A stretch of DNA of 63,111 bases from a phage (GCA_033178465.1 GCA_033178465.1_4726.1); one strand, 5' to 3'; positions 8,201-59,756 are shown, counted from the first letter of the stretch. A program made the numbers and translations. Notes: generated by a model not told the origin, from the letters alone.

Positions 8201-9198
8201 CAGCGTACGGTAACGTTATGCATCTTAAAGGGGCCAGTGCCAGCGGTGAAGGTGAGATCCTTATTGGATGGTCTGGGACATCAGGGGCGCACGCGCCAGC
8301 GTATCTTCGTTCTCGTCGGGATGCGGCGGATGCGAACTGGTCGGAATGGGCACAGATCTACACCTCGAAAGATAGTATCCCTGGTGTGAACGCAACCGGA
8401 AACCAGAACACGACGGGTAACGCCGCTTCAGCGACAAGGCTTCAAACGGCAAGAACGATAGGTGGGGTATCATTCAACGGTACAGCAAACATCAACTTAC
8501 CTGGTGTTAATACCACAGGTAACCAAGATACCACAGGAAATGCGGCGACAGCGACCAAATTAAAGACAGCCCGGACAATAGGCGGAGTGTCTTTTGACGG
8601 CAGCGCTAATATTAACCTACCTGGCGTTAACACCGCTGGTAATCAGAATACTTCAGGAAACGCTGCAACAGCAACGAAGTTGCGGACTGCGCGTACAATC
8701 AACGGGAAAGCGTTCGATGGTTCGGCGAATATCACGTTAACTGCGGCGGATTTGTCTACGTATACGAAGTCAGAAATCGATACGAAATTAGGATATAAAG
8801 CATCCAGTAGTGATATCCCTAACATGGCGATTAAAACATCCACGCTTTCATCTGGTAGTATGAACATGTCGTTTAGTGACTTCATCAACTATCTGAAAGG
8901 TGAAGGCGCATTCAGGAAACGTTATTGGATCGGATTTGGTGATATGATGGGCGCGAACGCTGGGAGTACAGGAACAATCACCGGGTTCGGTGCTCTCCAG
9001 CTCGCTGGTACGATCATTGAAGTATTCAACTTCCCTAACGGGATGGATTATACGATACGTATTACTACGCAACATAAAGCAGATTATAGCGGTTTGACAA
9101 ATATGATTGTAGTGTATCATTATCGGAGCGCATTGTCGCCTGCCGGTCAATGGTTGAAGTTCGCTGGTGCGACAGGAGCGACAAACGAAGGGTATTAA
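5230..9198 (+). CDS. tail fibre protein (lambda Stf / P2 gpH-type N-terminal domain plus tandem fibre repeats)
   Basis: 1322-aa ORF; N-terminus (…ITHFAVGDGNG…ASQTALVHEVYRG…VEGIIP…GGFWVREIGLYDDQGELVVVGN.PE.YKP) matches the conserved N-terminal domain of P2 gpH/lambda Stf-like fibres from memory; two blocks of ~40-aa repeats (GNxxTATKLxTARxIGGVxFDGxAxIxLPGVN). Confidence 0.85.
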   Translation: MSTTYKTVITDKGAERIAAALLPDGEKLRITHFAVGDGNGSTPTPTASQTALVHEVYRGGVSNIHIDVDDTTRIVVEGIIPTSQGGFWVREIGLYDDQGELVVVGNAPEGYKPLPSEGAGRVLNCQVFVVVSNTDAIELKVVSDAFLPDATTEKRGLTILSSETNSDDETKAATSKAVKAVMDVAKGKYTAVDASTTRKGLVQLTSATNSDSEVLALSAKAGKVLATQISAKADLSSPAFTDKPTTPTAAEGDKSQQIANTEFVMRAIASLVDSSPEALNTLNELAQALGNDPNFATTVTNALAGKQPLNALLTAWSNLTTDANKLPYFTGRNQIGLTNVTSIGLNLLSKGSVDAVLLYLGLTETIKAAKTALQAGNNGSDIVDKTAFAKTIGLSPETYLKYNGDMAIDADLNTFGPVEASMGIWSKGTSTNATFAKNFPEENAVGYLEVFRAGNYGGSQRFTVRNGNIYTRHLTASWNGTNGPWSEWRNVAGSARTLNEQNNLNDLGGEPALGVWRNSTSTLATAALNYPEEGSFAQGVLEVLKGGNYSYTQRYTTRRGNVYVRCLQATWDASNPQWEEWRCVGCQSVSAYFEGDLDTLTSPNRYSITDKATNVPLIDGTKIIGILDVSRRFDNISIEQKFTSFGSGSKTTGRVFTRVFSGQSNGKWSDWREVFTSYSLPLVLGIGGAAAKVDSLDWQTYDFIPGQMLTTPLNTMQNIPSDMDWGVIDGNLVNILVGPSDDTGTGRSMLVWRSTVSTANYRFFAVRIAGTAGNRTITTRQMPVLNAAHTWAEKQTFNKGLAGDLTGNATTATKLQTARKIGGVAFDGTADIALPGVNAAGNQNTTGNAATATKLKTAVTIGGVSFDGSASISLPGVNAAGNQSTSGNAGSATKLQTARTIGGVSFDGTANIDLPGVNKAGTQSTSGNAATATKLQTARKINGVAFDGTKDISFTISAIASRGRVTALANAVQGTSTGVQMYEAYNNGYPTAYGNVMHLKGASASGEGEILIGWSGTSGAHAPAYLRSRRDAADANWSEWAQIYTSKDSIPGVNATGNQNTTGNAASATRLQTARTIGGVSFNGTANINLPGVNTTGNQDTTGNAATATKLKTARTIGGVSFDGSANINLPGVNTAGNQNTSGNAATATKLRTARTINGKAFDGSANITLTAADLSTYTKSEIDTKLGYKASSSDIPNMAIKTSTLSSGSMNMSFSDFINYLKGEGAFRKRYWIGFGDMMGANAGSTGTITGFGALQLAGTIIEVFNFPNGMDYTIRITTQHKADYSGLTNMIVVYHYRSALSPAGQWLKFAGATGATNEGY
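7648..8100 (+). repeat. tandem ~120-bp (40-aa) tail-fibre repeats, ~4 copies, inside fibre gene
   Basis: Protein repeats GNATTATKLQTARKIGGVAFDGTADIALPGVNAAGNQNTT / GNAATATKLKTAVTIGGVSFDGSASISLPGVNAAGNQSTS / … read directly from translation. Confidence 0.8.
8416..8740 (+). repeat. second block of ~3 tandem 40-aa tail-fibre repeats inside fibre gene
   Basis: GNAASATRLQTARTIGGVSFNGTANINLPGVNTTGNQDTT / GNAATATKLKTARTIGGVSFDGSANINLPGVNTAGNQNTS / GNAATATKLRTARTINGKAFDGSANITL. Confidence 0.8.
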
Positions 9199-9768: not shown

Positions 9769-9796
9769 CTCCTCCAACCCGTAAGGGAAGGAGGAG
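9769..9796 (+). terminator. conserved palindromic hairpin element (family A), followed by CTATGG
   Basis: CTCCTCCAACCC-GTAA-GGGAAGGAGGAG between lipoprotein gene and 9853 gene. Confidence 0.55.
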
Positions 9797-14881: not shown

Positions 14882-14913
14882 CCCTCCTCCAACCCGTAAG
14901 GGAAGGAGGAGGG
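14882..14913. terminator. conserved palindromic hairpin element (family A) between convergent genes; TATG on both flanks
   Basis: CCCTCCTCCAACCCGTAAGGGAAGGAGGAGGG; + strand continues TTATG, complement of upstream flank reads CTTATG. Confidence 0.6.
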
Positions 14914-18087: not shown

Positions 18088-18966
18088 GTGGATATGATTG
18101 ATTCCGTCTTGGCTTTGTTAGAAGGTAAGATCCCTGAAACAAGGCGTACGCTGTTACAGCACTGCATGCATCGTTTATACCAAGATTTTAAATGCGAACA
18201 ACTGGAAACGTTCTGCAGTACGATGTTATCAGGTGCTGGGGAACAATACGACTTAAACGAATTAGATATCATTTTAACAAACGGATGTATCGAACTTTAT
18301 AAACAACAATTGCTTGCCTTCGGGATCCGAATTAACGAAGGGCAACTATCTCTGGATAGCCTGAAATATCTTCACGCGCTAGCGTCTACGTTATTAGACC
18401 TGGAAACACACGACGATACCGCTTTTCTACTCGCTATCGTTGAAGATGAAGACTACACCACAGCTGAAGCGCTGGCGGAATGTACGCGACACATTTACGG
18501 TGTTGATGCTGTTAACGTAACACCGTTAATCAGTTTCGTGCATTCAAGCTTACTCCCACGCATTCAGCAGGTACTGACCAAGAAGCTGGAGAAAGACAGC
18601 GAAAATATCACCGACGAAGAAAACGTCCTGATTCCGGATCATATTCGTCGACGAATTCGTGTAATCAGCGATGCGTTCCCACCGGTGTTCAGCCAGTATA
18701 TTGATGAAGGGGGTACGATAGCGGTTCCACTAGACTTGCTGATAGCGCAGTGTCGGAATCAGTTGGCTACATTACGCCAGCAACCGTATGCATACACCCA
18801 AGAACTGATTGCATTCGCTTTAGCTTCTGATCTCGAAGATAATGAAATTATTCCCGTCTTACGAGAACTTATTACCGCAAACTTCCCGATGGCTGAAGAA
18901 TCCAAAGAAGCAACCCGAGCGTTATCAGAGTTCGTTTCACGTCGCGGCGACCTGACCCAGGTTTAA
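18088..18966 (+). CDS. hypothetical protein
   Basis: 292-aa ORF diverging from minus-strand operon; no motif recognised. Confidence 0.75.
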   Translation: MDMIDSVLALLEGKIPETRRTLLQHCMHRLYQDFKCEQLETFCSTMLSGAGEQYDLNELDIILTNGCIELYKQQLLAFGIRINEGQLSLDSLKYLHALASTLLDLETHDDTAFLLAIVEDEDYTTAEALAECTRHIYGVDAVNVTPLISFVHSSLLPRIQQVLTKKLEKDSENITDEENVLIPDHIRRRIRVISDAFPPVFSQYIDEGGTIAVPLDLLIAQCRNQLATLRQQPYAYTQELIAFALASDLEDNEIIPVLRELITANFPMAEESKEATRALSEFVSRRGDLTQV

Positions 18967-29298: not shown

Positions 29299-30609
29299 AT
29301 GTCATTACTACAACGCGTGTATGGTCATGACGAATTAACGATGGAGGCCATCAAGTTTCAAGATGGTTCCTTGTTCAAGGAAATGACCGAGTTCTTCAGA
29401 AGCAAACAGGGACTGGATAAAAAAGATGTTTTAAACGTTTTCAAGGACGGTCGTTTAACCGAGATGGTTAAACGCTATACGGGGTTGAACATCGAATTCT
29501 CGGTCGACGTGAAAATGGGCCAGATGAATGCCTACGTGTACCCACCGGATATTTCAACAAACAACACGATCCTGGCGGACTATCATCGATTATGGATGCG
29601 TGGTGTCGATGGTGTCGCACTTCTTAAGAAGATTAAAGATGCACCGGTCGGTTACGTCGATTTAGAAAAAGGTCGCGTTTACGGTATTTTTGAGGAGTTG
29701 AAGATTCGTTCTGCCATCACGTATGAACTACTAACGGCGACAGAACCCTTTCTTCCGGAAGAAAAAGCAGCCATAATGCTGCATGAAATCGGGCACGCAT
29801 TTACTTTCCTTGAAACATTGTCGGAAACGGTTCGTGTCGAAGCCTCAATCATGACCGTACAGCGTGAACTGTTGGGAACAACCGATAAGGTAAAACGTAT
29901 CGAACTGGCGAAAGCGTTAAACAAAACGTTGGATACCAACGTCGACGTAAATAAAATCAGTGATTCAGACGATGGTAGTGTCTGGTACACGGTTTACGTG
30001 TCTAACAAAGCGATGCAGTTAAGAAACGTAAACAACGCTGGACGATATACCGACGTTGCTTCCGAATTCATGGCTGATCAGTTCGCTACGCGTCACGGTG
30101 GTGGGGAGTATCTCGTTAGCGGGCTTGCTAAAATGTATCGGCTTTATGGTACCAACTCCATGAAGTCCAAAACGATGTTCTGGCTCTCCTTCATCATGGA
30201 TGCTACTATAGCTTCTATGATGGCGCTAGGTTTAGCTTCTGTTGGTGCTATCGGCGTGTTGGTTGTTGTCGCGGTAACCGCGCTTTCTGTTTGGTTGGAT
30301 CCGACATTTAGCATTTACGATAACGACATGGAACGATTCCGCAAAATCAAACAAGATTTAATTATACGCTTGAAAGATCGTGATATCCCAAGCGATGTTC
30401 GTTCCATGACGTTGGATACCATCAAAACAATCGATGAAACGCTGAGTGTGATGAACAATAATCGTACCTTCTCACAGATGGTTACGCTTATCCTTCGTCC
30501 TGGGGTTCGTAAAGCAGTTAAACAGGAAGAAATTCAGCAAGTCCTTTCTTCTACAATGAACAACGACCTGTTCAAAACAGCAGCGACTCTTGATTCCATT
30601 ATCGCCTAA
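29299..30609 (+). CDS. M48/HtpX-like zinc metalloprotease with C-terminal membrane anchor
   Basis: 436-aa ORF; HEIGH zinc-binding motif followed ~90 aa later by SEFMADQFATRHGG (E.xADxxA third-ligand motif typical of M48); hydrophobic segment FWLSFIMDATIASMMALGLASVGAIGVLVVVAVTALSVWL. Confidence 0.6.
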   Translation: MSLLQRVYGHDELTMEAIKFQDGSLFKEMTEFFRSKQGLDKKDVLNVFKDGRLTEMVKRYTGLNIEFSVDVKMGQMNAYVYPPDISTNNTILADYHRLWMRGVDGVALLKKIKDAPVGYVDLEKGRVYGIFEELKIRSAITYELLTATEPFLPEEKAAIMLHEIGHAFTFLETLSETVRVEASIMTVQRELLGTTDKVKRIELAKALNKTLDTNVDVNKISDSDDGSVWYTVYVSNKAMQLRNVNNAGRYTDVASEFMADQFATRHGGGEYLVSGLAKMYRLYGTNSMKSKTMFWLSFIMDATIASMMALGLASVGAIGVLVVVAVTALSVWLDPTFSIYDNDMERFRKIKQDLIIRLKDRDIPSDVRSMTLDTIKTIDETLSVMNNNRTFSQMVTLILRPGVRKAVKQEEIQQVLSSTMNNDLFKTAATLDSIIA

Positions 30610-37527: not shown

Positions 37528-37560
37528 TCCCTCCTCCTTCCCTGACGGGTTGGAGGAGGG
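37528..37560. terminator. conserved palindromic hairpin element (family A, inverted orientation) between convergent genes; TATG on both flanks
   Basis: CCCTCCTCCTTCCCTGACGGGTTGGAGGAGGG; followed by TTATGC; complement of upstream flank reads AATATGC. Confidence 0.6.
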
Positions 37561-40578: not shown

Positions 40579-41785
40579 TTATCCCTCGTAATTTTGCGGA
40601 ATGGTGGTACGGACAAGATCGCGACTGAACGTATCCGGTGGTAACGCCGACGGCTCAAGATCCAGATAGAATTCGTTGTAATCATCAGCGGGTACGAACC
40701 AAAGAAGCTCTGAGGTCAACGGATGAATAAATGGATACATATCGACACGATACGACATGATTCGACGCTCGTAGGGTGAGATAGGTACCAACTCCTCATC
40801 TTCAAGGAACGTACGGGTATCGTTCTCACCGTAATAGAACATCAGGACAAGTCGATTGAATTCATCCTTCAGAATCTCATCAAATGCGTTGTTACCAACC
40901 GCTTGGTATGGAATGGTGATACGTTCGTTATCTTGCGTGAAGGGTTTATCGATACTGTAGTTAGCCATATTACCGATCGGTAACCCGACGGGAAACATCG
41001 CGGTCGGTGCGAAGATATAACGAACATACATCCCAGTCGGATCCAAGATGATACGATAACATCTTGTCCAGTAATCCATTTCATTGTCGATGATGGCCTG
41101 AGGGCTTGGCGTCAGTTCACCATTATGCACGCCTGCGATGTAAATCAACCAAATATAATGAAGGAACATGATAGGGTTACCCATGATGTTCTTGAACGTC
41201 GCGTTCAGGTTATAGGGTTGAAACATATCCACTGAACCGTCAGCCATCACAACGGTTTCTTGGCGTAATCCCGGTTTACCCTGATAGACCTGCATTTCCA
41301 TGTCATTGAAACCGCTGATATCCGTCAGGTTGTCCGTCAGTATACTTATGAATGGATTGCGCTCATCGACGATGGCACGTCCTCGATGGTTCCGCTTTCT
41401 GGCACCCACAGGGTCCAAGTAATCACGGACAACAGCCTGAATGCTGTTAGGGTTATCCGTGCGTAACGACCACAAACGTCGATCTCGTTTTAAGTTCGCG
41501 TCGGTAAGATGTAAATTAGGTCGTGTAAAGAAGGTAATACCGGCATGATCGCGGTTAATCGGAATCGGGCTGTTACCCGGAATAGGTGATACATTCCGAT
41601 ACCGTCTGGCGATACTGTCCTCGTATGTCCCTTGACCGACACTGGTACGAATATTCTTCCGCGCTATTGCCCAATCCGAATCAGTGAATAACACCGCATT
41701 GCCCGCTGCCTCCACAGCTTCGGGTGTTAACGACGCATTATTCTCCTGAATGGTTTGAATAGCTTGGTCGTAGTAATTAGACATT
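40579..41785 (-). CDS. hypothetical protein (401 aa), possibly structural
   Basis: ATG at 41785 with AAGGAAAG RBS (track start 41817 is TTG); diverges from 41819 gene. Confidence 0.7.
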
Positions 41786-41818
41786 TTCTTTCCTTTATTT
41801 GTAAATAAGGATTTCAAT

Positions 41819-44458: not shown

Positions 44459-45781
44459 ATGCCTTCTATTTTTGATCGTCTTGTCGCAAATCCATCTAAC
44501 GCACAGCTGGTTCAACTGGCTGCTGAGATCGATCCGGATGCAGCGGCAACCGTTGAAGCAGAACCGGCAGCTGATGCTGCAGCAGCGGATGAAACCGTTG
44601 TGGCTGAACTGACCGAACGTGCTGAAATCGCTGAAGATACCGCAGCTGAAACCGAACTGGCTATCGAAGTTCGTGGTGATATCGAGCAGGTTGATGCTGT
44701 TGTTATCGAAATTGCAAAAGACGACGAAACCGCAGAAGCCATGGACGAAGCCATGGATGAACTGACGGAAACCGTTGTTGCAACCGAAAGCTACCTGAAA
44801 GACGGTGGTATGTCTGCACAAACCGCTCAGGAACACATGCGTAACCTGAAACGCCTGTGTGGTACTATCGGTTTCAAACTGCCGGAAACCATGCCGTCCT
44901 TCGAAAGCTTCGGTGGTTCCGCTTCCCGCTACGATGCAACCAACATGATCTTCCTGGAAGAACAAAAATGGTGGCAGAAACTGTGGGCAACCATCAAGAA
45001 CTTCCTGAAAACTTCCTGGGAAACCTTCGTGAAGTTCATGGATCGTATCTTCGACGGCGCGACCAAACTGAAAGCACGTGCTGCTAAACTGAAAGAAATG
45101 ATCGGCAAGCGTAAAGGCGTTGCTAAAAATACCAAAGTTAAACTGGGTAGCGGCGTTTCAGGCTACATCGGTGGCGACGATCTGGTTACCGGCGCGACCA
45201 AAATCGCTGACACCTTCGAGAAAGCAATGAAGGCTGCTGACGATCGCGCTGATAAATTCGTTGGCACCGTTGTTGCTAAATCTCACACCGAGTACGCTGA
45301 TAAACTGAACGCTCCGGCGATCGCTGACGTTGCTGGTCCGGCAGGTTGGGGTTTCAAAGCCAACGATGGTAAAGTAACCTGGGAACGCTCTGGCGAAGCA
45401 AAAGAAGTTGAAGCTACCGTCCTGTCCCTGAATCAGCTGGCTGCTGCGGTTAGCGGTGTTGAAGTACTGGCTGACAAACTGCTGGCGCTGAAAGGCAACA
45501 TCGGTAAGAAATCCCAGGGCTTCAAAGACGCTGTTAAATTCGGTGACGATATGGAAGCCGATCTGTCTAAGAAAGGCGAAGTTTCCGCTCAGGAAAAACA
45601 GCGTGTTCAAGCTGTACTGTCTGCACTGAAAGACGCACGTTCCTGCTACGTGAACCCGCAGACTGGTCTGATGAAATACGGTGTTCAGGCAGGTAACGCT
45701 GTCCTGGATGGCGTTGCTAAAATGCTGAAAGAGTACGGCGGCCAGGCGGCTGAGAAACCGGCTGACGCAGCACAGCAGTAA
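44459..45781 (+). CDS. putative abundant head-internal/virion protein, member of paralogue family; acidic Ala/Glu-rich N-terminal region
   Basis: 440-aa ORF; strongly host-optimised codons (CTG, CGT, GGT, AAA, GAA, ACC, TTC); N-terminal motif MPSIFDRLV shared with neighbours (SLFD-type); AAGGAAAC RBS. Confidence 0.7.
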   Translation: MPSIFDRLVANPSNAQLVQLAAEIDPDAAATVEAEPAADAAAADETVVAELTERAEIAEDTAAETELAIEVRGDIEQVDAVVIEIAKDDETAEAMDEAMDELTETVVATESYLKDGGMSAQTAQEHMRNLKRLCGTIGFKLPETMPSFESFGGSASRYDATNMIFLEEQKWWQKLWATIKNFLKTSWETFVKFMDRIFDGATKLKARAAKLKEMIGKRKGVAKNTKVKLGSGVSGYIGGDDLVTGATKIADTFEKAMKAADDRADKFVGTVVAKSHTEYADKLNAPAIADVAGPAGWGFKANDGKVTWERSGEAKEVEATVLSLNQLAAAVSGVEVLADKLLALKGNIGKKSQGFKDAVKFGDDMEADLSKKGEVSAQEKQRVQAVLSALKDARSCYVNPQTGLMKYGVQAGNAVLDGVAKMLKEYGGQAAEKPADAAQQ

Positions 45782-45803
45782 TCAGTTAATAAACTGACAT
45801 ATT

Positions 45804-45835
45804 CCCTCTCCCTTCCCTTACGGGTTGGGAGAGGG
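45804..45835 (+). terminator. conserved palindromic hairpin element (family A) followed by TTCTATGCC
   Basis: CCCTCTCCCTTCCCTTACGGGTTGGGAGAGGG immediately after stop of 44459-45781. Confidence 0.6.
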
Positions 45836-45883
45836 TTCTATGCCGCTCAGGTTTATCTTTTGAATCATTACTGGAGACAACAC

Positions 45884-47200
45884 ATGGTACACATACCGCT
45901 ATTTGCGACCCAAGGCGATATCAGCCTTGAGGCGTTTGAAAAAGATCCTATTGTTGCTGAGGCGCTTGCTGTGGAGCCTACAGCCGATGTCATCGATGCT
46001 GATGGCGTTGAATTACGTTTGGCGACAATCGACGAACATGAAGATGCACTTGATCGTGCTTTCCCTGCTGTTGCCGCATTACGGGAAATCAGTTTTGATG
46101 TTGCTCCGACTATCGAATCGGCTAACTACAGTGACGTTGCATTAGTTCGTAATGTGCAAGAATCCGCATCGATTGCTCTGGGTCTGCCCTCCGAAGCATT
46201 GCTGACGCCAACCGATCGTGTTGAGGTTGGAGAAGCTTTGGTTGTTGAAGGGTTTAAGGACACCGTTGTAAAAGCCATGAAAAAGATCTGGGATATCATT
46301 GTTGATATTGCCCTGACTCTGGCAGCAGCCTTTGAGAAGCTTACCCGTCTTGTTTACGACGAGACGCGCAATTTTCAGAAAGCTGTTGCAGACCTCGAAC
46401 AAATGCCTAAAGGTAAATACGAGGAAAATAAAGAAGTTGCATTTAAAGCGGAGTGGCGGACGCTTTTCCCTAACCGTAACAAAGTTGGTGGTGTAGACAC
46501 GCTGAAAAGCAACATCGATACCTTCAATCAGATGTTCCTTAAATCGGACGGTTATTCAGTTATTGATGGGTTAGGGTTAAACATCATCGACTTCCATTTG
46601 GATAAGGTTGAAAAACTTCCCGTTGATTATCTGACTTTCTTGAACGCTGTCAAATCGACACTGGAAAATCGCGGTTCTGTGGAAGGTACTGACGTTATCA
46701 CTCCAACGGTTTCCGGAAAACGTATCCGCTACGTCAACGGTGCAGTCTTCTTGAAAGAATTCGATGCGTCAAAAGACAATATCATCGATGCGGTTAAACG
46801 TTACCTCGACTTGGATATTGTCGTTGAAGATGTTGAATGGGATAGTGACCCGGAAACGTACGTCCTACCGACACCTGACGATTTGCGTAGCGTTCGACAA
46901 CTGACGTTCGCGAAAGATCTGTTGATGGTAACAAAACGCGGACGCGCTTTCTCTGAGATATTCTCTCGCAATAAAATTCGCACCATGGAGCGCATCCAGG
47001 AAATCACCATGAAACGCTTCAACGAGCAGAATTTTGACGCAAGCTACCAACCGTATGTCGAAATCTATCCTAAGCTCGTTAAGCGCGCGATTCTGCTTTG
47101 TGGTAAAGAGAACCGTATTGAAAACCAATTCGCTTACCAATATCTTCGTGCATTGACCTCATTTATCAACACTCTCGTTAAAGCTTATACCAAAGGTTAA
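45884..47200 (+). CDS. paralogue-family virion protein (putative head-internal/ejection protein)
   Basis: ATG at 45884 with GGAGAC RBS (track start 45860 is TTG); paralogous to 47210-48499 (e.g. VALVRNVQESASIALGL…VVEGFKD vs VALIRQIASTSAANLGM…VLEGFKE). Confidence 0.75.
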   Translation: MVHIPLFATQGDISLEAFEKDPIVAEALAVEPTADVIDADGVELRLATIDEHEDALDRAFPAVAALREISFDVAPTIESANYSDVALVRNVQESASIALGLPSEALLTPTDRVEVGEALVVEGFKDTVVKAMKKIWDIIVDIALTLAAAFEKLTRLVYDETRNFQKAVADLEQMPKGKYEENKEVAFKAEWRTLFPNRNKVGGVDTLKSNIDTFNQMFLKSDGYSVIDGLGLNIIDFHLDKVEKLPVDYLTFLNAVKSTLENRGSVEGTDVITPTVSGKRIRYVNGAVFLKEFDASKDNIIDAVKRYLDLDIVVEDVEWDSDPETYVLPTPDDLRSVRQLTFAKDLLMVTKRGRAFSEIFSRNKIRTMERIQEITMKRFNEQNFDASYQPYVEIYPKLVKRAILLCGKENRIENQFAYQYLRALTSFINTLVKAYTKG

Positions 47201-47209
47201 GGAACTAAC

Positions 47210-48499
47210 ATGGCCCGCATCTCTCTTTTTGATAACGTCGATAAAAACGCATTCGAACTCGCATTGCTCAGCGCCGAAGATCTTCTTGCGGCAATTCCAG
47301 CGGAGCAAAATGATCCCAACGCAGAAATCGAAGAGGACGAAGTTGAGTTGGTGATTCAACGTACCGACGAGACAATCGATGAATCCAGCGAGCTGGCTGA
47401 AATCGCGGTGCGTACCTCAGCAACGCTGGAAGATACCGCATACATGATCGCACCTACGATCCCTGAAGCACGTGCGAGCGACGTCGCCCTTATCCGTCAG
47501 ATTGCTTCGACGTCAGCAGCTAACCTGGGGATGTCCGATGAAGACATGTTCCAAGCCGACGATCGTTTGGTGGAAGGGCAGGCTATCGTACTGGAAGGCT
47601 TTAAAGAACGCGCAGCACAAGCGTTATACGCAGTTTGGGTAATCATTGCGAATATCGCTGAGCAACTGTTCAAACTGTTCCAGATGTTGTTCAAGAACCT
47701 GGTCGTTGCATACAACAAAATTGTCAAGATCGCAACCGCTGTGAATAAAGGTGAGCGCCATATCAAACAGTTGGATAAGCCCACTGGAAATATGGTCAAT
47801 ATGTTCCCTAATGCTAAATCAGCGAATGCCGTGTTTGCAAGCAAGCATATCGAACAACTCGCTGCAAGCGCAAGCGGGACGGATTCACTGTTTAAGCATG
47901 TGGCTGATATCAATAAAAAGGTCGCAGACCTCACTGACCTCACACTGCTTCCGTCTATCTTAGACAAATACCTGCTGGCGATCAAATCAGCTCTGAATAA
48001 AGTTGTTTTTCCAGAGAGCGGTGGGAAGGAATTCGTTATTCAAGGTCTCGACGCTGTTGAAAACGAACGTGATGCGATTAAAGCCTATACGTTGGTGAAA
48101 AATATTCGGGTTGAGGCCGAGATGACGGTGGCCGGTGAGATAGAGAACGCAAACATTTTCAAAGACGATAACGAACTGAAAGGTGCATTGACTTCCTATC
48201 TTAACGTGTTCCGTACGATAGACTCCTCTTATTTCCACATGGTTGAAGCTTTGGCCGGTTCTGTGGAGCGTACCGCTAAACTCAACGGCATGAAAATCAA
48301 AACGAAGTGGGGTGATATGCTCGACAAGCTGCCTGAAGCCGATCGTGAAACCATCCGTCCTTATGTAAGTGCGGTTTCTGAAATGGCGCGCTTAAGTACT
48401 GTATTGTCAACCAAGATTCTTCGCGCTTCGATACGCCAATATGCGGATGCTGTATTTGCTGCAGCGAAATACTTCGACGCTGTAACCGAAAAAGCATAA
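47210..48499 (+). CDS. paralogue-family virion protein (putative head-internal/ejection protein)
   Basis: 429-aa ORF; N-terminus MARISLFDNV; acidic propeptide-like segment; paralogous to 45884-47200. Confidence 0.75.
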   Translation: MARISLFDNVDKNAFELALLSAEDLLAAIPAEQNDPNAEIEEDEVELVIQRTDETIDESSELAEIAVRTSATLEDTAYMIAPTIPEARASDVALIRQIASTSAANLGMSDEDMFQADDRLVEGQAIVLEGFKERAAQALYAVWVIIANIAEQLFKLFQMLFKNLVVAYNKIVKIATAVNKGERHIKQLDKPTGNMVNMFPNAKSANAVFASKHIEQLAASASGTDSLFKHVADINKKVADLTDLTLLPSILDKYLLAIKSALNKVVFPESGGKEFVIQGLDAVENERDAIKAYTLVKNIRVEAEMTVAGEIENANIFKDDNELKGALTSYLNVFRTIDSSYFHMVEALAGSVERTAKLNGMKIKTKWGDMLDKLPEADRETIRPYVSAVSEMARLSTVLSTKILRASIRQYADAVFAAAKYFDAVTEKA

Positions 48500-48508
48500 C
48501 CACTATAT

Positions 48509-48541
48509 CCCTTCCTCCTTCCCTTACGGGTTGGAGGAAGG
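48509..48541 (+). terminator. conserved palindromic hairpin element (family A) followed by TTTATGGCG
   Basis: CCCTTCCTCCTTCCCTTACGGGTTGGAGGAAGG after stop of 47210-48499. Confidence 0.6.
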
Positions 48542-48647
48542 TTTATGGCGTTGGTATCCGGTTATCTTTTGACTTCTGAATCAACGGTTCAGAAGGTAAA
48601 TGGCGGACATGATCACCCGCCAAGATTTTCCTACGTAGGAGTCCCAA

Positions 48648-49949
48648 ATGGAAAACGTGTTACAACAACCCATGACATCGTTGTTTCAAGGGATTGATGA
48701 TGAACCTGTAGAATCGTTCGGTATCGCTGGCAATATTCTCGATGCCAGTAATATTGAGAATCAGTTTCACTCAATCGACGAAACAAACACGGTGATGAAA
48801 GAAGGTGAACAACACCTTCAAACATTAAATAAACTCAGGTTGGATATCGTCCCAAACATGGCTGAAGTTGAAGAACGCGATATTAACACCATCAAACATA
48901 TCGCAACAACCGCAGCTGCCGGAATGGGAATGGACCCAAACCAAATCATCGAGGGTCTGGAAGAGGAAACTTCCAGCGGGATGAGCTTGAACATGGAAAG
49001 TTTTGACAAGACCGCAAAAGAAGCAACCCGAGCGTTATGGCTTTACATGAACGAGTTATACCGCTACGCGATCGATATCTGTAATCGTTGTTATCGTCGA
49101 TTCGTTCGTCAGGTGAAGCCGTTATTAAAGAAAGCGGCTGCGTTGAAAACTATTTCCGAATACGATGTTAATGAAGATAACGCATTCTGGGAGAACTTTC
49201 CTTACAACTGGCGATATCTTCATCCGAAAGGTGGTGCCGTAAGCAGTATTGCTGATTTACGACAAACCGCAGAAAACATCGTGACGAACACAGGAATCCT
49301 CGCAGCATGGCATCGTCAACTCGATCCGTTATTAATGCAGCTACTAAAAGCACCATCAGCGGATAACAAAGAAGGTATCGCTGCAGAAAACGAAGCCTGT
49401 TGGGAGAATATTCTCGAGGTCATCAACGAGGCGTTATGCGAGAAGCCGTTAACACCTGCCGGAACAGACGATCTGGTCGTTGACGTTCCTGTTGGTGCTT
49501 CCTACCTTAAATTACACAACATCGAAGACGCATCAGGAACGCAATTCAGCGTTGTGTGGGAAGCCGTATCTTTCCAATCAGCAAAAGACGGATTCCGTTT
49601 CTTACCGTTAAACGATGTTATCGACGGAACCAACGCGATCATCAACGCATTAAGTACGTTATGGTCTACGCTACGACAGTTGGAATTTAAACGTTGTCTT
49701 GAAGCAAGCCTTGCCGACCAGGACGAATGGATTCAACCTTACGAGCGTTTGCTGCAACAGATGGACAACGACGATACCACCGCATCCGCTATCGTTCAAC
49801 GTGTGGGTATCGCGCGTAACGTCGTCGGCTTCCAGGCGGTTGCTTTTGCCCGATTCCTGTTAACTGTCTGCGACGTCATCGACGGTCTTAATGATTATCT
49901 TGACGCGCATCTCGAACTTGAGGAAACCAGCAATGCTGCAGACCTATGA
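48648..49949 (+). CDS. paralogue-family virion protein (putative)
   Basis: 433-aa ORF, AGGAG RBS; N-terminal MTSLFQGIDDE motif and segment IKHIATTAAAGMGMD resembling other family members. Confidence 0.7.
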   Translation: MENVLQQPMTSLFQGIDDEPVESFGIAGNILDASNIENQFHSIDETNTVMKEGEQHLQTLNKLRLDIVPNMAEVEERDINTIKHIATTAAAGMGMDPNQIIEGLEEETSSGMSLNMESFDKTAKEATRALWLYMNELYRYAIDICNRCYRRFVRQVKPLLKKAAALKTISEYDVNEDNAFWENFPYNWRYLHPKGGAVSSIADLRQTAENIVTNTGILAAWHRQLDPLLMQLLKAPSADNKEGIAAENEACWENILEVINEALCEKPLTPAGTDDLVVDVPVGASYLKLHNIEDASGTQFSVVWEAVSFQSAKDGFRFLPLNDVIDGTNAIINALSTLWSTLRQLEFKRCLEASLADQDEWIQPYERLLQQMDNDDTTASAIVQRVGIARNVVGFQAVAFARFLLTVCDVIDGLNDYLDAHLELEETSNAADL

Positions 49950-51039
49950 CGGACAGATTCAAGCGTTAAGCTTGTTAAAAACATTACCTGTGCCAGAGAC
50001 AGCAACGCAACGACAAATTCACCAGCTTATTTATCAGCAAGCAGGCGGTATTCCGGCAACCGGTTATACCACAGAAAGTGCTGATCTCCTCACGATGGAA
50101 TCGTACAATCAGCTTGCGATGAAAATCATCAAAGCCATCATCGATGCGATCTGGACAACGTTGCGGAACATCACTGCGTTTATCGCCCGGTTTATCGATC
50201 GTAGTCGCGCACTACAGCTCGAACTCAGCAACATCCGCCGTCACTACACAAAAGCCGTTGGTCGTAAACCCATCGCGCAAAGCTTCGAAGCTTCGTCAAC
50301 GCTGGCACCGCACCTACGGTATGGGAACAGTTTTGGATTCGACTTCACAACTGGGAATACGTTATACAAACAGAATTTGGCAATCGCTGAATATCTCTTG
50401 TCTTCGTCGTTCCGTGATGATTTCAAGCAGTTCGCTAATACGTTAGATAGAGCGCTCGACATTATCTTAAAACAGACGGATACCGCATTAATCGATGTGA
50501 TTAATCGCGATGCGTATACGTTATTGCATAAAGTCTACAGTACGCTGAACGAATCGAGACTTGTCAACGTAACGTTACTGGGTAACCGTACGCTACGACT
50601 CGATCAGGTTACCACCGCAGGTTCTGGTTCAATTCAACAATCCCTCGCTATTCAATCCGCACGGTTTGAAGTCCAGGATGTACCGTCAGTTGAACGGGAT
50701 ATGGTGGTTACAATGCCAACATTAGAACAAGTTGGTGTGCTACTCGAGTCGGTAAATACGGGTGTTGATTTACTGGTTAGTTACCATCGTAAAAAGTACG
50801 CCAACGAGTTACTCGAAATCGCAGGGAATCTACAAGCAAAACTTAACGACGTTTATCGTCAACAAGGTCAGTTGTCAGTTACTACTGCTTCTGATGATGC
50901 TATGGTAGCCCTTTCTCGATACCTTACAGCGTATACCGCGTGGATCAAGGTGCCGCTTGTGGGCTATGCCGAGTTCTTTACGAATTCAACAGCGGCTATG
51001 CTTGATGTCTCTCGCGAGGCGCTGAAATATTACTTTTAA
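49933..51039 (+). CDS. hypothetical protein, possible divergent family member
   Basis: ATG at 49933 with AGGAAA RBS, overlapping end of previous gene; ~368 aa. Confidence 0.65.
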   Translation: MLQTYDGQIQALSLLKTLPVPETATQRQIHQLIYQQAGGIPATGYTTESADLLTMESYNQLAMKIIKAIIDAIWTTLRNITAFIARFIDRSRALQLELSNIRRHYTKAVGRKPIAQSFEASSTLAPHLRYGNSFGFDFTTGNTLYKQNLAIAEYLLSSSFRDDFKQFANTLDRALDIILKQTDTALIDVINRDAYTLLHKVYSTLNESRLVNVTLLGNRTLRLDQVTTAGSGSIQQSLAIQSARFEVQDVPSVERDMVVTMPTLEQVGVLLESVNTGVDLLVSYHRKKYANELLEIAGNLQAKLNDVYRQQGQLSVTTASDDAMVALSRYLTAYTAWIKVPLVGYAEFFTNSTAAMLDVSREALKYYF

Positions 51040-51054
51040 GAGGAATAACGCTTT

Positions 51055-54000
51055 ATGAAAAAATCGTTAGCTGATCTGATGCGTAAGTCGCATCTTAACC
51101 TGGAAAGCGGCGATACACCTATCGAAGTCAAAGCAACGCTTTCTACTGATAAAGAAGAGCAAGTGATCGCATTACCTACAGCGGCACGGCCAGACAGCAT
51201 CGAAGCGACGATCGAATCAGATACGCTCGAGGAAGGGGCTACCGTTGATGACGCTGTTCGTGTGATTCGTAGCACGGGTGAAAACGGCGAGGATGTCGTA
51301 CGTGCTGTTATTGTTACCCGTCCTATTGATGGTAGTTTGCGAATCCGTTTCACACCGAGCAACGGTGGTGTGACCATGGAAGACGGTAACGATGTTCAAC
51401 CGTTCGTTCTGATCGCGGTACCGACCGCACCTGGCGAAGAGCCGAAGAACCCGTATCCGGCAAACGCACCGACCGAGACACCGGCACCGAAAGTGACCAA
51501 TGACCCGACCGTTAACGCTGACCGTGACAACCTGAAGAACAAGATTCAGGATGCGGCTAACGCCATCGATCCAACCAATCCGGCACAAATCGAACAGGCT
51601 GCGCAACCGGCAGAAACCACCGAAGGTGTTAAAGGCAATGTCGTCGAACCGGAAAAAGCAGAACCTGTTGCTGAAACAGCAGCTGAGGTAGCCGAGGCGA
51701 CGCCAGAAACCAAAACGACGGAAGAACCCATCAAAGTCACCGTGATTAAACGTGTCGTAGAGAAAGTAGAAAAGGTTGAAGATACCGTCGCTAACGAACA
51801 ACCTGTTGTCGACGCTAATGACGGTAATACCGGTGAGCAGAAAGCTGAAGCAGTTGCTCAGGAAACAGAACTGCAAGGCGATGTTGAGGTCGATAGCGCC
51901 GACGAAACGTCCACCGAGGATAGCACCACCGAACCCGCGTCCGAAGAACCTACCAACACCGACGCTGATGCTGATGCTACCGACACCACAACCACCGAAG
52001 GTGACGACGATGAAGACGACGAAAACGAAGAAGATGAAGATCTGAAACAAGAGTCGTTCGAAATTCATCAAGAGCTGGAAGCCCGCGGCGTATTAGATGT
52101 TCCTGTTGTTGAACAGCGCGCATCTGTTATTCTCGGCGAAGGTGAAACAGATGTAACCGTCATTGAAACAGAACAACCGTACATTCCTGGCACCATGGTG
52201 GTACGTCGTCTTGATGGGGATAAGAGTGTTATTGTTCGCCGTACTCGTTACGCTGAACGCTTTAACGCTGATGGTCAGGGTGAAGCGATCGCCATTGTCG
52301 ACCCTACTCTGCAAGGCGAACTGAAAATGGAATTCCGTCCGGCTGAAGGTCCGATGGAAAGCTTCGAGATTCGTCCTGAAATCAAAGACGAATACATCAT
52401 GGAATCGTACAAACAGCTTGATGTCGCACTGAACAGCGATCTCAATCTGGAAGACGGGGAAAAGCAACCGGGTCGCTTTAAACAGATTCTGAAATCGGTT
52501 TACGAAGCGGTCGCGAAGTTCTTAAAAGCCCTCGTGGCGCGTTTGAAAAATCTCTTTGGTGTTAATAAGAAAAAAATCGAAGAGAAGGCCGACAAACTGA
52601 CCAAAGAACAACGCACAGCACCAGTGATGAAACTGCTTCCTCCGCCGAGCGATACCAAGAAGGTTGACGTTGAGTGGAATAAACTGGATACGCTGCTCGC
52701 AAACGACTCGAAATCTGTCGATAAGATCGTAAACGCCGTCAAAGACAGTAAACGTATTGCGGACGCGTCGAAGAAATATTTCGATGAGTTAAAGAACAGC
52801 AAGGAAGGCGAGCAAGTTCAGCATCCAGCTGAAATGAAAGCAGCTCTTGGAATGGCGGGCGTGAAAGCGTTCGGATATTCTATCGACGACGCGTTAAACG
52901 GCATTCGTGAGTTCCGTGACGAACTTAGCGCCATGAAACAGCAGGATGATGCTGTGCCGTCCAACGTTAGCGTTGAAATGCTGATCGATGCATCAACAAA
53001 ACTGTTTGACGAAGACCTCCTGAAAGCAGCTACTCAACTTCAGGAGACGGCTGAGCAGTTACTCCGCGATCTGGACAAAGTGGAAAACGAATCAGGCGCA
53101 CGCTACGTCACGCAGCGCACACGTACCCTGATGAACTTTGCAACAACTGCATGCACCGTTTACGGATTCGCCGCAAAAGAACTGGGCGATGTTACCGTTC
53201 GTATACTCACCGCTGTCGCAGCGGCTGATAACGGTGATCTCAAACAGGAAGAGTATCAGGATGTTGCCGGTGAAAACGATCCGGTTGTCACCATCGAGAC
53301 ACTGGAAGGCGATGCTGGTACTCGTGTTGTTGCTGAGGCGGAAATCGTTGATGATCCTGCTGTGGTGGAATTCGTTGAGCGTGCTGAAGAAGCGCAGCGA
53401 AATCTGGCTATCGGTCGCCACGCGGTGAACGCGGTGGAAGGTATTCTGGTAGCGGCACGTGAGATCGGTCCTGATAACTTCCAGGGTAACGTCGAAGCTA
53501 CCGAAATTGCGATGGAAGGATTCATGGATACCGTTAAGAGCGCGGTCAACCGTATCGGTAACTGGATTGAAACCAACCACCGTTACTATACCGCCGCTAC
53601 GGCTCCATGGGATAAGCTGTTCGCCGAAACACAGCAAGCGTTGGCCAAAGCGCGTCGCGGTAACCCAGCAGCAGAACGGATTATTCTGAAACGTTTCATC
53701 CGTCATCTTACCATCGGTGGTGAACCTGTCACCGATGTGAAGAAGCTCATCGCTGCGTTGGGTGAAATCAAAATGCTTGGTAACATGACGCGTGAATTAA
53801 TCGTTGCTATCAATCGTGAGCTCAGCGACGTGCGGAAGAGCAACCAGTCCGAAACATCCGCTGGATCGGTTGTTGGTCTGAAGCGTATTCCTATTCAGAA
53901 ATGGGATAAGCTCATGGTCGCTACCGTACAACCGTGGAAAGACAGCGATCGTAAAGGTGTTGGGTCCAAAGCGTATCTTGGTGAAACGCACATCGTGAAG

Positions 54001-54414
54001 GTGAGCGCGACCTATGCGACAACGCGCAACAACCCGAACGAGGAAGCAGCGAAACTGATGCAGTGGATCTACACCGGTATCAATCGCCAGTTTACGGTTT
54101 CTGACGACCTCACCAGTGAGGAATTACCGGTAGCTACTATCAGCGAACTGGAGGCAGTGCTGCGTGCGGCTCGTGAAGCACATGAAGCTTGGCTTATTGC
54201 TGACAACGCCATGCAGACCCTGCGTTCAATCGATAAATTCCTGGATAGCGAACTCAACGTTGAGAACGATGTTAATAATGTCGTTAACTACGGTATTGTT
54301 CTCGGCCTGGAAGATTGGCTGTTCCATCCGGCATTGACGTTATGGCAACAGTTCAATAAACCGATGCAAGCGGTGCTTTTCCTCATCAAAGCCCATTGCG
54401 GTGCCTACAAGTAA
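51055..54414 (+). CDS. large virion protein (1119 aa) with extended acidic low-complexity region
   Basis: N-terminus MKKSLADLM (family-like SLxD motif); region ~51700-52060 encodes Glu/Asp/Thr-rich stretch (…TEGDDDEDDENEEDEDLKQE…); AAGAGGAA RBS. Confidence 0.75.
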   Translation: MKKSLADLMRKSHLNLESGDTPIEVKATLSTDKEEQVIALPTAARPDSIEATIESDTLEEGATVDDAVRVIRSTGENGEDVVRAVIVTRPIDGSLRIRFTPSNGGVTMEDGNDVQPFVLIAVPTAPGEEPKNPYPANAPTETPAPKVTNDPTVNADRDNLKNKIQDAANAIDPTNPAQIEQAAQPAETTEGVKGNVVEPEKAEPVAETAAEVAEATPETKTTEEPIKVTVIKRVVEKVEKVEDTVANEQPVVDANDGNTGEQKAEAVAQETELQGDVEVDSADETSTEDSTTEPASEEPTNTDADADATDTTTTEGDDDEDDENEEDEDLKQESFEIHQELEARGVLDVPVVEQRASVILGEGETDVTVIETEQPYIPGTMVVRRLDGDKSVIVRRTRYAERFNADGQGEAIAIVDPTLQGELKMEFRPAEGPMESFEIRPEIKDEYIMESYKQLDVALNSDLNLEDGEKQPGRFKQILKSVYEAVAKFLKALVARLKNLFGVNKKKIEEKADKLTKEQRTAPVMKLLPPPSDTKKVDVEWNKLDTLLANDSKSVDKIVNAVKDSKRIADASKKYFDELKNSKEGEQVQHPAEMKAALGMAGVKAFGYSIDDALNGIREFRDELSAMKQQDDAVPSNVSVEMLIDASTKLFDEDLLKAATQLQETAEQLLRDLDKVENESGARYVTQRTRTLMNFATTACTVYGFAAKELGDVTVRILTAVAAADNGDLKQEEYQDVAGENDPVVTIETLEGDAGTRVVAEAEIVDDPAVVEFVERAEEAQRNLAIGRHAVNAVEGILVAAREIGPDNFQGNVEATEIAMEGFMDTVKSAVNRIGNWIETNHRYYTAATAPWDKLFAETQQALAKARRGNPAAERIILKRFIRHLTIGGEPVTDVKKLIAALGEIKMLGNMTRELIVAINRELSDVRKSNQSETSAGSVVGLKRIPIQKWDKLMVATVQPWKDSDRKGVGSKAYLGETHIVKVSATYATTRNNPNEEAAKLMQWIYTGINRQFTVSDDLTSEELPVATISELEAVLRAAREAHEAWLIADNAMQTLRSIDKFLDSELNVENDVNNVVNYGIVLGLEDWLFHPALTLWQQFNKPMQAVLFLIKAHCGAYK

Positions 54415-54430
54415 TCCGTACGCATAAACA

Positions 54431-54450
54431 GCCCGCCCTTCGGGGTGGGC
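54431..54450 (+). terminator. GC-rich hairpin followed by TTTATGCTG
   Basis: GCCCGCCC-TTCG-GGGTGGGC after stop of 51055-54414. Confidence 0.55.
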
Positions 54451-54502
54451 TTTATGCTGTCGACCATCATGTGATATCTTATCTTTCAAACAGGAATCTG
54501 CG

Positions 54503-59723: not shown

Positions 59724-59756
59724 CCCTCTCCCTTCCCTTTACGGGTTGGGAGAGGG
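59724..59756 (+). terminator. conserved palindromic hairpin element (family A) followed by TTCTATGCTG
   Basis: CCCTCTCCCTTCCCTTTACGGGTTGGGAGAGGG after stop of 58352-59719. Confidence 0.6.

Follow-up and report, generated by a model that had tools for sequence, protein, structure and literature searches.

A block of six PF12699 internal head protein genes in a Goslar-like giant phage and its predicted processing scheme

Gene content and family membership

Six consecutive open reading frames (ORFs), here named p1 to p6, were recognized on the plus strand at positions 44459-54414 of a phage DNA stretch of 63,111 nucleotides (nt), i.e., GCA_033178465.1_4726.1, hereafter the window. The original prediction had proposed six virion-type genes here, and all six were found at the coordinates that it gave. 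The region showed 94.1% nt identity to Escherichia phage Goslar, with 97% of the region covered. Goslar is a nucleus-forming jumbo phage of E. coli, i.e., a chimallivirus. We consider it about 80% probable that the block encodes six paralogous PF12699, i.e., phiKZ-type, internal head proteins of a Goslar-like chimallivirus, which carry a leader and a junction, are processed, and are ejected. In Goslar, this block has been described before, and the PF12699 family has been characterized in phiKZ and SPN3US.

The ORFs were assigned to Goslar genes in the same order and orientation, i.e., gp58 to gp53. The p1 gene (44459-45781, 440 amino acids (aa)) is the ortholog of gp58 (99.1% aa identity), p2 (45884-47200, 438 aa) of gp57 (97.3%), p4 (48648-49949, 433 aa) of gp55 (97.0%), and p5 (49933-51039, 368 aa) of gp54 (97.0%). 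The p3 gene (47210-48499, 429 aa) is the ortholog of gp56 with just 78.3% identity. The p6 gene (51055-54414, 1119 aa) is the ortholog of gp53 (94.1%) and is 6 aa shorter. The start of p5 at 49933, which had been marked with a query, agrees with the Goslar annotation.

The block lies in a conserved gene neighborhood. On its 5' side, two minus-strand genes, i.e., phiKZ gp87 and gp88 homologs, are followed by homologs of gp89, gp90, and gp91, and the gp91 homolog (Pfam PF25618, PhiKZ_gp91) is directly upstream of the block. On its 3' side, gp98-101 homologs, a DnaB helicase, and the major capsid protein (MCP) were found. The order of gp87-91 homologs, six genes, and gp98-101 homologs is common to the window, Goslar, and phiKZ, and it matches gp48-52 followed by gp53-54 in SPN3US. 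The phiKZ slot equally holds six genes, gp92-97, of 440, 435, 505, 547, 371, and 816 aa, against 440, 438, 429, 433, 368, and 1119 aa in the window. By position, p5 corresponds to phiKZ gp96 (371 aa) and p6 to gp97. In a more distant clade (locus L002, 10001-19668; p1 approximately 47% identical), five block genes were found, not six. This clade has two genes of the p2/p3/p4 type instead of three, and p6 orthologs of 1375-1670 aa. The number of paralogs and the size of p6 are therefore fluid.

Family membership was searched with the Pfam PF12699 model (phiKZ-like internal head proteins; gathering cut-off 27 bits). The p1 protein was the sole block protein over the cut-off (77.5 bits, E 1.5e-21, positions 6-385 of 387 of the hidden Markov model (HMM)). 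The scores of p2 (23.6 bits) and p5 (22.1 bits) were under it, and p3, p4, and p6 gave nothing at E<0.1. A precomputed PF12699 match is present in a distant p5 ortholog. In addition, p1 matched PHROG internal head protein families at E 2.5e-9 and 1.7e-7.

The remaining proteins were connected by profile comparison. The reference consisted of 13 bona fide PF12699 members, i.e., proteins that pass the Pfam cut-off or are founders of the family. By hhalign against this reference, p1 was matched at E 4.8e-13, p5 at E 8.1e-10, a p2/p3/p4 subfamily profile at E 4.2e-14 (98% probability, full length), and aa 736-1119 of p6 at E 2.6e-6 (89%, full domain). An HMM built from the 13 references, independent of Pfam, recognized p4 (E 1.6e-8), p5 (E 7.6e-8), and p2 (E 3.7e-7), and no window ORF outside the block. 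The AlphaFold2 (AF2) model of p3 was disordered over residues 1-81 and helical from residue 129, and its C-terminal domain showed a predicted local distance difference test (pLDDT) score of 75-92. A Foldseek search of this model against BFVD returned solely phiKZ-like internal head or virion proteins, 48 of them at E<=1e-3, with template modeling (TM) scores of 0.4-0.5.

Word-indexed searches found only orthologs of the Goslar clade, the 45%-identical clade for p1, and approximately 30%-identical homologs for p6. When p1 and p3 were searched by tblastn in 50,697 phage records, one weak match only was found besides Goslar; these proteins are too divergent for BLAST. An exhaustive HMMER search was required to go beyond these homologs. 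With the p2/p3/p4 profile, 16 proteins were found among 1.84 billion representatives, and six of the ten remote relatives tested pass the PF12699 cut-off, with up to 144 bits.

Within the block, p2 and p3 had been called plainly paralogous over hundreds of residues. The relationship is significant (BLASTP E 5e-18), but it is confined to the first 160 aa or so at 34% identity, and global alignment gave 28%. The p4 protein joins this subfamily (BLASTP E 5e-9 to p2 and 2e-8 to p3). The p1, p5, and p6 proteins are tied to the other block proteins at the profile level only.

All six block proteins are PF12699 members, with the weakest evidence for p6. Besides its silent Pfam search, two results count against p6, i.e., no precomputed PF12699 match was present among its 119 homologs, and the AF2 model of aa 440-1119 was poor (mean pLDDT 46), with no Foldseek hit at E<=1e-3.

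The p6 protein is composed of several modules. A first beta-rich module (aa ~60-125) and a second one (aa ~345-445) are separated by a linker rich in Pro, Ala, Thr, and Glu, which holds an acidic tract. A helical region (aa 451-735) and the PF12699-like domain assigned by hhalign (aa 736-1119) follow. The pure acidic tract reported for 51055-54414 is real, but it is internal to p6: by charge profile, it lies on the plus strand at nt ~51895-52059 (aa ~281-335) and includes DDDEDDENEEDED. The net charge is about -38 over aa 241-360, and it is -16 and -11 in successive windows of 40 aa. The tract length is polymorphic among relatives, and the indels relative to Goslar are located there (51950-52080). 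The p6 orthologs are 1109-1134 aa long in the clade and 1089-1670 aa in distant relatives. A tandem duplication of PF12699 in p6 (aa 451-735 and 822-1119) was considered and is not supported, i.e., the two halves matched each other at E 0.15-0.81 only. The middle region matched the family profiles in one helix only (E 6e-4, 47 columns). Self-BLAST found no internal repeats in p6, and comparing the beta-rich modules by profile gave nothing significant.

Virion content and variation of the helical domains

The orthologs of all six proteins have been described in Goslar virions. In the virion preprint (bioRxiv 10.64898/2026.04.21.720040), gp53 and gp58 carry PF12699, and gp54-57 have the same fold predicted by AlphaFold. 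By liquid chromatography-tandem mass spectrometry, the virion copies were approximately 2150 for gp58, 50 for gp57, 60 for gp56, 50 for gp55, 70 for gp54, and 330 for gp53. The tail and baseplate model includes none of the six, which are all listed as capsid cargo that was not modelled. It is also reported there that gp58 is injected and that the locus is syntenic with phiKZ gp92-97. The central idea of the original prediction, i.e., phiKZ-type packaged head-internal or ejection cargo, is correct by synteny, PF12699 membership, virion detection, and injection of gp58. Leaders, junction motifs, processing, and population variation of gp53-58 were not analysed in the preprint.

A known counterpart outside Goslar is the phiKZ group gp92-gp97, together with gp162 and gp163. 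The PF12699 proteins of phiKZ undergo proteolysis during packaging and are injected into the early infection vesicle together with the DNA; gp92, gp93, gp95, and gp97 were shown to be ejected into the host. The gp93 protein is cut at SLE-13, after which residues 14-84 lie against the inner face of the capsid between hexamers; additional cuts detach the helix-rich domain. The likeness to the block covers the genomic slot, six genes, Glu-ending leaders, acidic regions, and a helical C-terminal domain, and it would extend to proteolysis of the gp175 type and to co-injection, which in Goslar was shown for gp58. However, the identity is too low for BLAST and profiles alone connect the two groups. 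Several phiKZ members are present at approximately 100-200 copies, whereas Goslar has one dominant member. The residue at position P3 of the p2-p5 junctions is not S, A, or G, and Goslar has no visible inner body.

In SPN3US, the counterpart is paralog family A, i.e., gp53 and gp54, the major ejection proteins, with PF12699 as in the block and with long acidic propeptides, like the candidate propeptides of the block. These proteins lose propeptides of 125 and 137 residues by several A-x-E cuts, with Ser favored at P1' (PMC5694885). They differ in being two paralogs, each above 600 copies, and their cuts were mapped, whereas those of p1-p6 are only predicted.

Phage T4 provides a functional parallel. 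A short N-terminal signal brings cargo to the prohead core, the protease removes the signal after Glu, and the cargo is ejected (PMC5694885). The comparison with T4 drawn in the original prediction is valid as analogy, i.e., for the logic of targeting signal, protease, and ejection in IPI-III and Alt, but no sequence relationship to T4 internal proteins was found. Homology to IPI, IPII, IPIII, and Alt, including the consensus of the capsid-targeting sequence, was rejected with no Pfam or PHROG match, and the only head-related PHROG matches were to internal head protein families of the phiKZ type. The T4 signals have 10-20 residues, in contrast to approximately 120-150 putatively removable residues here, and the N-region of the phiKZ counterpart stays on the capsid wall.

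Comparison with Goslar showed uneven divergence. The flanking head genes and p1 were 99-100% identical at the aa level, p2, p4, and p5 approximately 97%, p6 94%, and p3 78%. The whole block evolves faster than the neighboring head genes. In p6, a divergent patch at nt ~52,680-53,270, in the middle helical region, showed 69-88% nt identity to Goslar with a gap of 20 columns.

The divergence of p3 is confined to a hypervariable cassette at 47660-48469 on the plus strand (aa 151-420), i.e., in its helical domain, where the window carries a different allele from Goslar. The cassette had 67% aa identity to Goslar and no gaps, a nonsynonymous divergence (dN) of 0.237, and a proportion of synonymous differences (pS) of 0.74, i.e., synonymous sites were saturated. 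In the flanking parts of p3, the synonymous divergence (dS) was approximately 0.18-0.20, and the flanking sequence was approximately 95-99% identical. Saturated synonymous sites, no gaps, and low-dS flanks together indicate recombinational replacement by an old allele and not local fast evolution. Among 33 p3 orthologs from Goslar-like assemblies, the cassette fell into at least eight allele classes with 51-83% identity, and aa 1-150 were 85-97% identical.

The acidic N-parts of p1-p4 were more conserved than the helical domains, which is the opposite of the expectation for a discarded propeptide. Between the window and locus L004, the N-part and C-part identities were 96.6% and 81.4% in p1, 90.2% and 66.7% in p2, 84.5% and 59.3% in p3, and 92.3% and 83.9% in p4. 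Between the window and the distant L002 clade, p1 showed 57.4% in the N-part and 42.4% in the C-part. This difference within p1-p4 and the hypervariable cassette of p3 are the new results here. The pattern fits an N-module bound by contacts with capsid and protease and an ejected domain that meets the host.

Such a pattern can also be explained by a structural role. The proteins could act mainly as the prohead core or scaffold, with acidic N-regions and helical domains building the core for the T=27 shell, as T4 gp22 does, and ejection would be incidental. This explanation is compatible with the internal head protein reading, and we regard it as possible, with the odds against it. The approximately 2150 copies of gp58, together with Goslar cryo-electron microscopy (cryo-EM) without an ordered inner body, would suit a core, and the annotated head genes beside the block include no obvious canonical scaffold gene. 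Higher conservation of the N-parts is expected for contacts with conserved capsid proteins. The N-region of phiKZ gp93, which binds between hexamers, is a proposed driver of assembly, and SPN3US gp53 and gp54 total more than 40 MDa per head (PMC5694885). However, phiKZ survives knockout of gp93 and of gp97, which would not be expected if an essential scaffold were lost. Classical scaffolds exit the head, whereas the helical domains are retained in mature virions in many copies and are injected. The fast, allele-like diversification of the helical domains also fits a host-facing role better.

For packaged and ejected internal head proteins, a host-facing role of the helical domains can be considered. 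In Pseudomonas, Juk immunity is triggered by ejected phiKZ factors and co-localizes with inner-body proteins. By analogy, host sensing of the Juk type would be one plausible selective pressure on the helical domains. We tentatively suggest, at well below even odds, that the proteins are two-part molecules under opposite selection. The N-module would be kept constant, the ejected helical domain would act as a rapidly evolving effector that faces the host, and the domain of the low-copy paralog p3/gp56 would be an exchangeable cassette, of at least eight ancient alleles in near-identical phages, in an arms race with Juk-like host sensors.

The block adds no new kind of system. Groups in the field count the role of the PF12699 proteins among the key unsolved questions about the chimallivirus life cycle, and the block offers testable handles, i.e., predicted cleavage sites at leader and junction, a conserved assembly module against a diversifying ejected module, and the allele-like paralog p3. 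Should host sensing of ejected proteins lie behind the diversification, sensitivity to early-infection defences would naturally depend on these genes. This could then help explain differences in host range among Goslar-like phages.

N-terminal leaders and predicted processing

A short element, i.e., two hydrophobic residues followed by D or Q, was found within the first 5-13 residues of p1, p2, p3, p4, and p6. The leader of p1 covers aa 1-23 and ends at AAE-23, those of p2 and p3 are MVHIPLFATQGDISLE-16 and MARISLFDNVDKNAFE-16, the SLFQG element of p4 is at residues 11-15, and the leader of p6 covers aa 1-17. The motif strings quoted in the original prediction were present, but the p5 protein, which it had included, has no such element. 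A regular expression for the element matched five of the six block proteins and 2 of the 45 other window ORFs; it was written after the sequences were seen, and the count is therefore descriptive only.

The leaders are kept over long distances. In a clade only approximately 45% identical, PSIFDRL of p1 corresponds to QSVLDRL, SLADLMR of p6 to TLADYMR, and ISLFD of the p2/p3 type to IKLFD or IKLFQ. In a metagenomic relative (p1 approximately 47% identical), the leaders persist and the following residues drift. The leaders of phiKZ gp93, gp94, gp95, and gp97 terminate in SLE-11/13, and those of distant family members in ALE-10, SLE-8, AME-10, and ALE-11.

The motif might have arisen by chance or simply through paralogy and play no part in targeting. 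It is only 3-5 residues long, its post hoc definition makes the enrichment test circular, and two unrelated window ORFs also match the expression. The p5 protein has no motif, yet its ortholog, Goslar gp54, is packaged at approximately 70 copies. However, the leaders are conserved across clades in which the remaining protein is 27-47% identical. Distant members, phiKZ, and SPN3US all have a short leader ending in x-x-E, and in phiKZ gp93 the leader is cut experimentally at SLE-13. In SPN3US, gp53 and gp54 are identical in the N-terminal 15 residues despite 34% overall identity, and this stretch was likened by the authors to T4 capsid-targeting sequences (PMC5694885). We therefore consider a functionless motif improbable.

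Other N-termini in the window resembled the element. The ORFs at 29299-30609 and 18088-18966 begin with sequences similar to the family leader, i.e., MSLLQRVYGHDELTME (compare MSLLKMLDKLSLE of phiKZ gp93) and MIDSVLALLEGK. These ORFs might encode further protease substrates or packaged proteins, or the likeness might be chance. A further one is at 41785-41817 on the minus strand, 5' of the homolog of the tail-tube initiator gp062, where the TTG start of the longest ORF adds MKSLFTNKGKK with an SLF element. In the Goslar annotation, gp062 starts at the downstream ATG, and the SLF element in the extended N-terminus is probably coincidental.

Following the leader, acidic Ala/Glu-rich regions were found. 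The net charge over residues 1-120 was -27 in p1, -18 in p2, -21 in p3, -18 in p4, +4 in p5, and -9 in p6. The 45 other window ORFs showed a mean of -2.7 (standard deviation 6.3), and none of them reached -20 or less. Acidic N-termini had been claimed for all six proteins; they are extreme in p1-p4, but not in p5, and the N-terminus of p6 reaches just -9. The observation made in the original prediction was correct in substance and overstated in uniformity, i.e., it is partly confirmed.

In p1, the acidic region extends from the leader to the junction SFE-149, and the helical domain covers aa 150-440. The six proteins contain 11 copies of a junction motif, E-[S/G]-[F/Y], where 1.6 would be expected. 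Each boundary to the helical domain carries one of them, i.e., at E149, E122, E129, E117, E56, and E821 in p1-p6. On the plus strand, with ^ as the candidate cut, the p1 junction is SFE-149^SF (nt 44903-44905), that of p2 is VVE-122^GF (46247-46249), that of p3 is VLE-129^GF (47594-47596), that of p4 is NME-117^SF (48996-48998), and that of p6 is AME-821^GF (53515-53517). The junction-like site of p5 is TME-56^SY (50098-50100). The verified cut of the phiKZ MCP, GLE^NY, has the same shape from P1 to P2'. The junctions of distant family members are canonical sites, i.e., AME^SY, GME^SF, ATE^NF, ALE^AF, and SVE^SF. The phiKZ cleavage sites and the S/A/G-x-E rule are given here as cited in PMC5694885 and PMC11297242.

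Four S/A/G-x-E sites of p1, i.e., AAE-23, AIE-70, AQE-125, and SFE-149, are conserved in the 45%-identical clade. AQE-125 and SFE-149 are in the same alignment columns as the SPN3US AQE sites, including the mapped cut of gp54, AQE-124^SY. The same columns also hold GME-119 and ALE-137 of phiKZ gp93.

A candidate protease was found in Goslar. By tblastn with phiKZ gp175, no homolog was detected in the window or in Goslar at 40.7-74 kb and 109-159 kb. The search for a prohead protease elsewhere in the genome, as the original prediction had proposed, led to Goslar gp212 (NC_048170, 203033-203839), outside the window region. This gene product matched phiKZ gp175 at E 1e-21, and the gene adjoins a gp176 homolog. 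The T4 protease has been reported at a few copies only, far below the approximately 160 of gp212. The gp212 protein is present in purified Goslar virions at this estimated copy number (bioRxiv 10.64898/2026.04.21.720040, Table S4). The Goslar prohead protease is active, because residues 1-157 of the MCP are missing from the map (bioRxiv 10.64898/2026.04.21.720040).

The peptide list of the preprint (Table S4) was re-read over its alphabetical range A to ELK, and the results below on individual peptides are limited to this range. The total area of gp58 was 10.8 million over 87 peptides, i.e., a mean of approximately 124,000. Two peptides of its N-region, AEIAEDTAAETELAIEVR (residues 55-72) and DGGMSAQTAQEHMR (115-128), had areas of 4,880 and 9,180, i.e., 13-25 times below this mean. 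For gp57, the peptides 21-45 and 59-67 were missing from the range, and C-region peptides had areas of 33,300, 5,690, and 2,620. For gp56, ASDIALIR (89-96) was missing from the range, and AALTSYLNAFR (325-335) had an area of 31,600. These values are suggestive, not decisive, of N-regions that are largely removed or cleared in gp58, gp57, and gp56, with gp53 keeping its N-terminal half.

Several points weigh against the proposed scheme. Two peptides of the N-terminal half of gp53, AEPVAETAAAAAEVTPETK and AVIVTRPIDGSLR, which span residues 84-96 and 202-220, were present at 79,000 and 11,000 against a mean of approximately 33,000, and a peptide across the IME^SY junction was at a normal level (17,600). 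Therefore, gp53 is untrimmed there or the fragments are retained. The gp58 peptide DGGMSAQTAQEHMR spans AQE-125 and is detectable, and this site is therefore uncut in some copies. The depletion estimate is also rough, because acidic peptides ionise poorly and the range offers no C-terminal gp58 peptide that is fully tryptic; missed-cleavage peptides of the C-part of gp58 had areas of 7,850 and 7,920, similar to those of the N-region. At the junctions of p1-p6, P3 is S, V, V, N, T, and A, i.e., only p1 and p6 fit the S/A/G-x-E or A-x-E rule, and cleavage at the p2-p5 junctions is therefore not assured. The p5 protein is an exception, i.e., a short PF12699 member with no leader motif, acidic region, or propeptide-like region. 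Finally, no ordered inner body was seen in Goslar by cryo-EM (bioRxiv 10.64898/2026.04.21.720040).

Some of these points would also suit proteins that are packaged but unprocessed in the Goslar-like clade, with the acidic N-regions staying attached as counter-charge or spacer elements. The P3 residues of p2-p5 outside the known rule, the normal levels of the gp53 N-half and IME^SY peptides, and the peptide across AQE-125 agree with this, and processing of ejection proteins differs among giant phages (PMC5694885). On the other hand, the gp58 N-region peptides of the range lie far under the mean, and the N-regions of gp57 and gp56 were undetected in it while their C-regions were found. The truncated MCP speaks for an active protease, gp212 is itself present in virions, and the conserved sites of p1 coincide with mapped SPN3US cuts. 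Packaging without processing is accordingly judged improbable, slightly more so than a functionless motif.

A tail or tape-measure-like role is effectively refuted: it would rest on a weak PHROG match of p1 (E 8e-4) over a short, coiled, low-complexity stretch, and on the upstream neighbors gp062 and gp063, which the Goslar structure shows as tail-tube initiator and baseplate components, whereas the PHROG internal head matches of p1 are far stronger, p1 is over the PF12699 cut-off, and the six orthologs are capsid cargo outside the tail and baseplate model; p1 was therefore dropped as a tape-measure protein.

For internal head proteins, N-terminal processing after S/A/G-x-E by a gp175-type protease is plausible. 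The processing claimed in the original prediction agrees with gp212, with the p1 sites aligned to SPN3US cuts, and with depletion of the gp58, gp57, and gp56 N-regions, but not with p5, gp53, and the P3 residues of p2-p5. The proposed molecule has a short leader, a long acidic disordered region (in p1-p4), a junction of the form x-x-E^[S/G]-[F/Y], and an all-helical domain of approximately 290 residues. During prohead assembly, the leader and acidic region would recruit the protein into the prohead, and, as in phiKZ gp93, they may in addition attach to the inside of the capsid. The gp175-type protease, Goslar gp212, would then cleave behind Glu at two places, the leader and the junction or its vicinity. 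Cleavage would free the helical domains, which would remain with the packaged DNA. At infection, at least the dominant p1/gp58 would be ejected together with the genome and reach the early infection vesicle. Two members would be exceptions, i.e., p5, with no N-terminal module, and p6, a large multi-module variant that would keep its N-half in the virion. In this scheme, we infer where exactly the cuts fall, that the leader acts in targeting, and that p2-p6 are ejected.

Transcription signals and related contigs

Hairpins were found in the gaps of the block. In the p1-p2 gap, a hairpin on the plus strand at 45804-45836, CCCUCUCCCUUCCCUUACGGGUUGGGAGAGGG, is followed by a short U-rich stretch and showed an RNA fold z of -4.1. 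A second copy is in the p3-p4 gap at 48510-48543 on the plus strand (z about -4). The p3-p4 gap holds two more stem-loops up to ~48622, the last of which is the putative terminator annotated in Goslar. The hairpin core TTCCCTTACGGGTTGG occurred seven times in the window against 0.39 expected, mostly intergenic at gene ends, i.e., at 9031-9046, 9774-9789, 14889-14904, 37538-37553, 45813-45828, 48519-48534, and 59734-59749. These hairpins are probably a phage-specific family of terminators or attenuators. The Goslar annotation has no hairpin copy after p1. Judging from sequence, the hairpin after p1, at approximately 2150 copies, may attenuate transcription into p2 and p3, at approximately 50 copies.

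After p6, a GC-rich stem, AGCCCGCCC/GGGUGGGCU, followed by UUUAU, was found at 54430-54456 on the plus strand (RNA fold z of -3.7). Goslar annotates a terminator at the equivalent place, and this hairpin is likely the intrinsic terminator that closes the block. A sigma-70 promoter scan of the block gave 6 matches against 12.8 in shuffled sequence. The scan is uninformative, as expected, because the phage uses its own RNA polymerases.

Goslar-like contigs of approximately 235-250 kb were frequent in public assemblies labelled E. coli, Salmonella enterica, Shigella sonnei, and Enterobacter hormaechei (P0013, P0019, P0069, P0074, P0132, and others). This suggests that Goslar-like phages are often carried with enterobacterial isolates or contaminate them.

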